A stretch of DNA of 334 bases. It comes from Escherichia coli (GTDB lineage: Bacteria > Pseudomonadota > Gammaproteobacteria > Enterobacterales > Enterobacteriaceae). The DNA lies in NCBI RefSeq assembly GCF_003334765.1, contig NZ_QOWT01000136.1; one strand, given 5' to 3'. Each line of letters begins with the position of its first letter. Within the stretch, counting starts at the first letter, position 1. A program made the translations under genes and the position numbers. The notes beneath the pieces are model-generated. The model did no database searches and had not been told where the DNA came from. It was given only the letters and a program-made list of their open reading frames with translations. Below are positions 1 through 334 of this stretch, one piece after another.

Positions 1-334
1 AGCATTCTTTCCAGGTCGACGAGTCGGTCAGTCTGTTGCCCGGTGATAAGATGAAACCCCCACCGGTCCCACCTCACTAGGTTGTTGTTGACGATAATTT
101 TACTGCCAAATTTGCAGGGGCAATTGGTTTTGTAATTCCAGTTCAGTCCCCTGAAGACGTTGATCACCCCTCGCTCAAACACCTCATCCTTATTCTGGTG
201 TAGTTGTTCAAATGTGCTCAGAATGTTCGCTTCACTGATTTCCGGAAAATTATCGTGCTCCAGTGACCGGTACCATGTATCACGGGCCTGTGCATCCATT
301 AAGGAAAGCATCCCTGAACGTTGCATCAGGTCAC
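1..334 (-). CDS. Partial CDS (internal fragment, both ends outside the window or start unresolved), hypothetical protein of unknown function. In-frame codons occupy + coordinates 3-332. Translation (N->C): DLMQRSGMLSLMDAQARDTWYRSLEHDNFPEISEANILSTFEQLHQNKDEVFERGVINVFRGLNWNYKTNCPCKFGSKIIVNNNLVRWDRWGFHLITGQQTDRLVDLERM
   Basis: Seen in sequence: manual six-frame translation gives one frame on the reverse complement that is open for all 110 codons across the window. Both other minus-strand frames have stops within the first 60 nt, and + frames 1, 2 and 3 have stops at 52-54 and 133-135, 44-46, and 78-80 respectively. A 110-codon stop-free run at about 48% GC is unlikely by chance (rough estimate well under 1%). 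Codon choice and composition look like a real protein, with a mix of charged, aromatic and hydrophobic residues and no low-complexity runs apart from NNN. Product is unassigned: I see no catalytic motif I can name with confidence (no Walker A, no clear PD-(D/E)xK, no SAM-binding or DPPY-type methyltransferase motif in this fragment). Confidence 0.8.

Follow-up and report, generated by a model that had tools for sequence, protein, structure and literature searches.

What protein does a 334-nucleotide stretch of the Escherichia coli contig NZ_QOWT01000136.1 (hereafter the window) encode, and do the two peptides that an initial annotation had singled out in it, one with closely spaced cysteines and one with a tandem Arg-Trp repeat, mark the functional core of that protein? 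The window covers an internal part of a protein with a DUF4942 domain (PF13708). This protein had been annotated before and belongs to a known family whose function is unknown, and in this sense the finding is an ordinary one. The first of the two peptides, NWNYKTNCPCKFGSK, is, to judge from the family alignments, the signature loop of this family, with W, Y, K, T, N, P, F and G conserved. We consider it rather likely, with a probability of about 0.6, that this loop belongs to an early factor of mobile elements that is not a methyltransferase itself, but is tied to adenine methylation or to escape from restriction.

Only one frame is open over all 334 bases, namely that on the minus strand from base 332, which comprises 110 codons and translates as DLMQRSGMLS...NWNYKTNCPCKFGSKIIVNNNLVRWDRWGFHLITGQQTDRLVDLERM. 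The remaining five frames are interrupted by stops, no further open reading frame (ORF) of at least 60 amino acids (aa) was found on either strand of the window, and Rfam returned for both strands a chance snoRNA match only (best E=0.53). The profile search proposed along with the initial annotation was informative: Pfam identified DUF4942 in the fragment (E=1.5e-33, model positions 11-117 of 190) and over practically the whole domain model in the full-length E. coli protein (E=5.5e-66, positions 1-189 of 190), while no NCBIfam family was matched. Family-invariant or near-invariant residues W116, P126, F137, G151, L159, W161, N166, P168, G172, D201, L202 and R204 all occur in the window translation, and the sole family-conserved residue not matched within the window is S160, replaced by N. 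Residues are numbered here after the common 280-residue allele; one is to be added after residue 177 for the 281-aa allele.

The family set consisted of 2,112 clusters at 50% identity, and the full-length members among 150 listed clusters were aligned. Per-position counts refer to 112 diverse relatives, alignment A3 comprises 108 relatives (27-55% identity) and the query, and counts for close relatives are based on 114 enterobacterial clusters. Both flagged peptides were found on the minus strand exactly where they had been placed, NWNYKTNCPCKFGSK at 143..99 and RWDRWGFH at 74..51. The first of them falls into the most conserved part of the protein: residues 159-173 are the top-scoring 15-residue window, with 3.15 bits per column versus a protein mean of 1.89. 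Individual residues of the block are kept in most relatives (L159 in 96%, S160 90%, W161 92%, Y163 87%, K164 89%, T165 87%, N166 96%, P168 95%, F171 79% and G172 92%), resulting in the family pattern L-[S/N]-W-x-Y-K-T-N-x-P-x-K-F-G, after which K/R-K/R-I/L-I/V follows. Further downstream, D201 (window bases 15-17) is present in 112 of 112 relatives and R204 (bases 6-8) in 96%. The description of the segment as Trp-rich is correct in a weak sense, with 3 W per 31 residues, and what distinguishes it from chance is conservation, not composition. For the conserved loop, a role in binding of nucleic acid or another ligand is plausible.

The two cysteines that flank the conserved proline in this loop were suggested to contribute to a metal site together with Cys or His partners elsewhere in the protein. 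C169 is present in 99% of the close enterobacterial clusters and the E. coli protein does contain other cysteines (C20, C71 and C73) and histidines; however, the partners and the pair itself are poorly kept. C167, a variable position at which the window allele happens to have Cys, is found in 21% of the close clusters, and both cysteines together in only 21%. Among diverse relatives C167 occurs in 4-5% (the position is usually S, N, Q or L), C169 in 19-20% (usually V, C, F or Q) and C20, C71 and C73 in 2-3% each. There is no conserved Cys column anywhere in the family, H254 is the sole invariant His, and hence no group of three or four Cys/His ligands is conserved. A CxC metal site in this protein is thus very improbable, and as a property of the family it is, on these alignments, close to refuted. 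The two cysteines are best described as lineage-specific substitutions.

The second peptide might be an Arg/Trp motif for nucleic-acid binding that arose through a short DNA duplication. Its two RW units are indeed encoded by an exact 6-nt direct repeat, CCCACC, with copies 9 nt apart; the second copy lies at 68-73 as proposed, whereas the first one had been placed one base off, at 58-63, which reads CCCCAC, instead of 59-64. Such repeats are not unusual: three 6-mer repeats within 12 nt occur in the window, two of which derive from the GTT run at 81-90, and mononucleotide shuffles have 0.84 on average and reach three in 10% of cases, so that the CCCACC repeat is within chance expectation. The hairpin formed by the peptide is modelled with high confidence (see below). 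Throughout the family it tends to be rich in aromatic residues, Gly and basic residues, and 95-97% of close relatives retain its second Trp and the next Gly. Against a functional motif stands the lack of positional conservation. RWDRWGFH scores 0.57 bits and ranks 258 of 273 windows of equal length, each Trp of the pair is found in 3-4% of diverse relatives, and its columns contain 5-54% gaps. Even in close relatives the position of the first Trp is taken by W, Y, C, H or F, and K and R are equally frequent at that of the first Arg. The motif reading is therefore unlikely, and the peptide is a variable hairpin. The proposal of a candidate functional core thus holds for the first peptide, but neither for the Cys pair nor for RWDRWGFH.

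Structure prediction, the other check suggested for the initial annotation, yielded a confident model of the full-length protein (AlphaFold2 on a 109-sequence alignment; predicted local distance difference test (pLDDT) 90.2, predicted template modelling score (pTM) 0.82). The model consists of a long N-terminal helix (24-54), a helical part (79-159) and a 14-residue coil (160-173 by DSSP), which corresponds to the signature block and joins the helical part to the first β-strand, with pLDDT of 82 at residues 161-170 versus 93-97 on both sides. Strands two and three of the small sheet (181-184 and 187-190 in 280-aa numbering) form the RWDRWGFH hairpin, at pLDDT 96. Further helices and a strand-strand-helix unit with H254 and N267 are located beyond the sheet; a ββα-metal (HNH-like) reading of these two residues, considered from the strand-strand-helix order, was dropped for want of fold or profile support. 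Sequence searches of the PDB with both the single protein and the 109-sequence profile were empty up to E=10, the confident model had no significant fold match in the PDB, and the only matches in AFDB50 were the family itself and its methyltransferase fusions.

These fusions deserve a closer look, as database entries for the family include the names 'restriction methylase', 'Restriction endonuclease subunit M' and 'Methyltransferase', and phage relatives are annotated as DNA methyltransferases. In PHROGs, the protein matches two families of unknown function and PHROG 6263 'DNA methyltransferase'. The latter family, however, owes its label to the fusion proteins, and the match to it spans only profile positions 81-287 of 548. 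Twenty-three proteins of 441-578 aa contain DUF4942 followed by LEPSAGxG and, about 60 residues later, by NPPF, in all 23 cases in the C-terminal part. Fusions of this kind were noted among P0188, P0201, P0216, P0258 and P0270-P0356 and in L002:2740-4371 (gp22 of phage phiPSA1), and Pfam recognised a small methyltransferase (MTS) domain in P0188 and in phiPSA1 gp22. The fusions, such as phiPSA1 gp22 (YP_009043572.1) and the metagenomic P0188, share with the E. coli protein the N-terminal helix and DUF4942, including the signature loop (e.g., LAWDYKTNLPVRFGKR in P0201), but the E. coli protein ends with DUF4942 and lacks the C-terminal adenine-methyltransferase module with LEPSAGxG and NPPF. 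The methyltransferase labels of the phage relatives are explained by this fused module. In 109 stand-alone members, Pfam found DUF4942 only and no methyltransferase domain, NCBIfam gave no match, and the catalytic motif IV, (D/N/S)PP(Y/F/W/H), was present in 0 of 109; an FxGxG-like S-adenosylmethionine (SAM) motif I together with motif IV was seen in the fusions, where both reside in the C-terminal module only. The 'restriction methylase' labels of stand-alone members are thus names inherited from the fusion relatives, not evidence of function. Judged by its motifs, the E. coli protein is not itself a methyltransferase, and we see next to no chance that it is a DNA methyltransferase or the M subunit of a restriction-modification system.

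Could DUF4942 instead serve a split methyltransferase as its DNA-binding or target-recognition module, with the stand-alone form depending on a separate methyltransferase partner? DUF4942 is the sole other domain of the fusions: their methyltransferase module extends about 75-90 residues past NPPF, and a separate or otherwise recognisable target-recognition domain is absent. Methyltransferase genes are found near stand-alone DUF4942 in L004, L005 and Halomonas phage QHHSV-1, and the fused-type module is also a common stand-alone gene of plasmid leading regions, coding for a 'class I SAM-dependent methyltransferase' of about 187 aa on at least 5,000 PLSDB plasmids, R100 among them. In R100 (L012:6920-7483), however, this gene has a DUF3560 gene immediately before it and ssb after it, and DUF3560 is unrelated to DUF4942; its candidacy as a DUF4942 analogue was rejected at an hhalign probability of 0.1%. 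The E. coli island that carries the gene in the window has no adjacent methyltransferase either, and a complete IncI-gamma/K1 plasmid encodes DUF4942 but no methyltransferase module of the fused type, which rules out an obligatory pairing of the two. Recognition domains vary with the specificity of the methyltransferase and are normally its most variable part, whereas DUF4942 contains polar residues that are invariant, and its signature loop is fixed. Its many conserved polar residues suit an enzyme-like site, or one for a fixed ligand, better than a target-recognition domain that reads sequence, and we regard the split-methyltransferase reading as doubtful.

In QHHSV-1, the stand-alone DUF4942 ORF (L003:2756-3837) overlaps the stop of an 86-aa 'DNA methylase' ORF and is preceded by two more ORFs annotated as 'site-specific DNA methylase'. 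The cluster may represent a split or decayed methyltransferase cluster.

Conjugative plasmids and genomic islands commonly carry the family. Homologues are present on 4,352 of 72,556 plasmids in PLSDB (about 6%), and 3,997 of these plasmids (92%) are conjugative. The stand-alone gene is widespread in the leading regions of such plasmids, often as the ORF closest to oriT. In an IncI-gamma/K1 plasmid, pCS0010A_95, the gene order is ssb, a ParB-family gene, psiB, psiA, ardA, further ORFs, DUF4942, a small opposite-strand ORF, nikA and nikB. The DUF4942 gene of this plasmid (L010:8968-9816) has the same orientation as ssb, psiB, psiA and ardA, and as the last gene of this run before nikA-nikB it represents the oriT-proximal end of the leading region. 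A pOXA-48-like IncL plasmid encodes DUF4942 together with JAB/RadC, antirestriction and ssb genes, upstream of mobA/traI, and on further elements DUF4942 is located beside ArdA, KorA/IncC/KorB, primase or RadC genes. In a published survey of leading regions, family 24 is listed as 'Uncharacterized; DUF4942; Methyltransferase' with 2,171 members, a false discovery rate (FDR) p reported as 0, a median position of 1 from oriT and location on the T-strand, and family 76, with the same annotation, has 551 members (Samuel et al. 2024, PMC11541004, Supplementary Table 1). Neither family resembled known anti-CRISPR or anti-restriction proteins in sequence or structure (PMC11541004). Plasmid homologues are 33-37% identical to the E. 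coli protein over 94-95% of its length and reside on the T-strand next to oriT, with ardA, psiB, ssb and klcA-type genes as neighbours. The copy in the window differs from them in its chromosomal location beside cadC, where a degraded CP4-type island ends.

As an observation apart, the DUF4942 gene of pCS0010A_95 is preceded by a divergent pair of genes, one for a small helix-turn-helix (HTH) regulator and one hypothetical.

A DNA-mimic anti-restriction protein of the ArdA/Ocr type would be one way to account for such a location, since the neighbourhood and orientation are those of ardA and klcA-type antirestriction genes. With ArdA and ArdB/KlcA the family shares the gene neighbourhood and the presumed early expression, but there is no similarity in sequence or fold, and DUF4942 proteins are near-neutral rather than strongly acidic. 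The median isoelectric point (pI) of the family is 7.6 and its median net charge +1, pI is below 6 in only 5% of members, and the protein studied here has a pI of 7.7 and a net charge of +1. The model likewise has no significant PDB fold match, and the published comparison found no known counterpart for families 24 and 76. Given a family pI of around 7.6, a DNA-mimic mechanism is highly unlikely.

Taken together, the protein is probably an establishment factor or one linked to anti-restriction. In the sequence of events that we envisage, the DUF4942 protein would be produced early after the mobile element has entered a new cell. Its target, to be bound or acted on, would be DNA or a nucleotide ligand, and the process one connected with adenine methylation or with evasion of restriction. 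Its working site would consist of the signature loop and the invariant Asp (D201/D202), together with R204, H254 and N267. A more specific version is tentative: DUF4942 (YdiA) might be an enzyme or a DNA-acting effector with a fold unseen in solved structures and a site made up of the loop and the invariant Asp, His and Asn, which carries out an undescribed anti-restriction or establishment step linked to adenine methylation. If this were true, the ORF nearest to oriT on IncI-type plasmids would perform that step in the recipient cell.

Several facts weigh against an early factor tied to adenine methylation or restriction. The link to methylation is weakened by the complete IncI-gamma/K1 plasmid, which has no homologue of the fused methyltransferase module. 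It is further weakened by the fusions, all 23 of which share one motif pattern (LEPSAGxG then NPPF) and thus look like a single methyltransferase type, not like repeated independent fusions. PADLOC defence profiles matched 0 families at E<=0.1, and there is no experiment or solved structure for any member, in line with the empty PDB sequence searches. Finally, the copy in the window is chromosomal and sits in a degraded island, and its present role may be nil. In the literature we found no functional study of DUF4942: full-text mentions are confined to gene lists in four papers, PF13708 has no full-text mention, and nothing of use was found on ydiA in connection with plasmids, a paper on I-complex plasmid genetics being without mention of it.

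On its own, the window adds little: it belongs to an annotated gene, and its conserved block simply corresponds to the core of a family already in Pfam. More interesting is the family itself, which occurs in roughly two thirds of the complete E. coli genomes and whose genes are typically among the first to enter a recipient. With neither a known function nor a structural relative, it merits experimental attention. Point mutants would best be made in W161, Y163, K164, N166, P168, D201, R204, H254 and N267, leaving aside the Cys pair and the RW repeat. They would be useful for defining what this leading-region gene contributes when IncI1, pOXA-48 and similar plasmids spread. The features of the window are compiled in Table 1.

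Table 1. Coordinates of features in the 334-nucleotide window
Feature	Position	Strand	Remarks
ORF fragment	1..332	-	Residues 97-206 of 281 of DUF4942-domain protein; ORF overruns both window ends
Signature block L159-I176 (LNWNYKTNCPCKFGSKII)	93..146	-	Consensus L-S-W-D-Y-K-T-N-x-P-x-K-F-G-K-R-I-I
C167-P168-C169	114..122	-	Pro conserved, both Cys not
N178-N179-N180, (AAC)3, + strand GTTGTTGTT	81..89	-	One AAC beyond the common allele; NNN vs NN
R183-W-D-R-W-G-F-H190 (281-aa numbering)	51..74	-	Lineage-specific β-hairpin, variable, indel-rich
Direct repeat CCCACC	59..73 (copies at 59-64 and 68-73)	+	Period 9 nt; encodes two (R)W(D/G) units
D202-L-E-R205 (281-aa numbering; D201 and R204 in 280-aa allele)	6..17	-	Inside helix 194-210

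As to the allele, megablast detected the gene in 3,588 of 5,426 complete E. coli genomes, at up to six places per genome, and the matches were always annotated as 'DUF4942 domain-containing protein'. The best complete-genome matches differ from the window by a single 3-nt in-frame indel, (AAC)3 versus (AAC)2, which places the extra Asn in the turn preceding the variable hairpin. The NNN form was found in 0 of the 5,426 complete genomes, and the exact 40-nt pattern over the AAC insertion was unmatched in IMG/VR, GTDB representative genomes and JGI metagenomes. A protein look-up, on the other hand, retrieved the exact 281-aa NNN protein (P0384, EFF9769069.1 and others) from 41 contigs. Three loci (L015, L016 and L017) are 100% identical to the window over 334 nt at positions 10287-10620, within a gene at 10001-10846. 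As the exact NNN protein is on record and the window is identical to three loci, it represents a real minor allele, 100% identical to annotated E. coli DUF4942 proteins and distinguished from the common allele by the extra Asn in a variable turn. The additional AAC resembles a product of trinucleotide slippage, located in a turn that is structurally tolerant.

The chromosomal gene order of this copy is DUF987, CbeA antitoxin, CbtA toxin, DUF5983, DUF957 and DUF4942, directly followed by cadC-cadBA, with DUF4942 being the final gene of a degraded CP4-type island. In a related strain with the same island, genes for a GTPase, Ag43, an antirestriction protein and RadC/JAB were found upstream. Whereas plasmid homologues (L010, L011) are situated near oriT, the locus of the window is on the chromosome, where neither oriT nor a relaxase gene occurs within 10 kb and no methyltransferase gene adjoins the island copy. 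The chromosomal copy is probably a passenger carried over in the decayed island.

The upstream genes of the island have been variably deleted, CbeA and DUF987 being present in L016 and absent from L015 and L017. Some E. coli DUF4942 proteins (P0006, P0031, P0040, P0043, P0050 and P0076) have been predicted to be fused to antirestriction, CbtA, GTPase, DUF932, RadC or integrase domains; each of these is known from one contig, and they most likely reflect deletion or frameshift joins in islands undergoing decay, not true domain architectures. In several Escherichia phages (H36-H39; vB_EcoP-683R2, vB_EcoS-733R5 and others) only a short stretch resembling residues 76-151 (51% identity) is present, and the ORFs over this piece are annotated as 'hypothetical protein' or 'A-kinase anchor protein 5'. 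About 9 kb upstream of the gene in L015-L017, the island remnant abuts type VI secretion genes for PAAR, DUF2931, a Tle1-like lipase, TssG/IcmF-like proteins and VipA/VipB.
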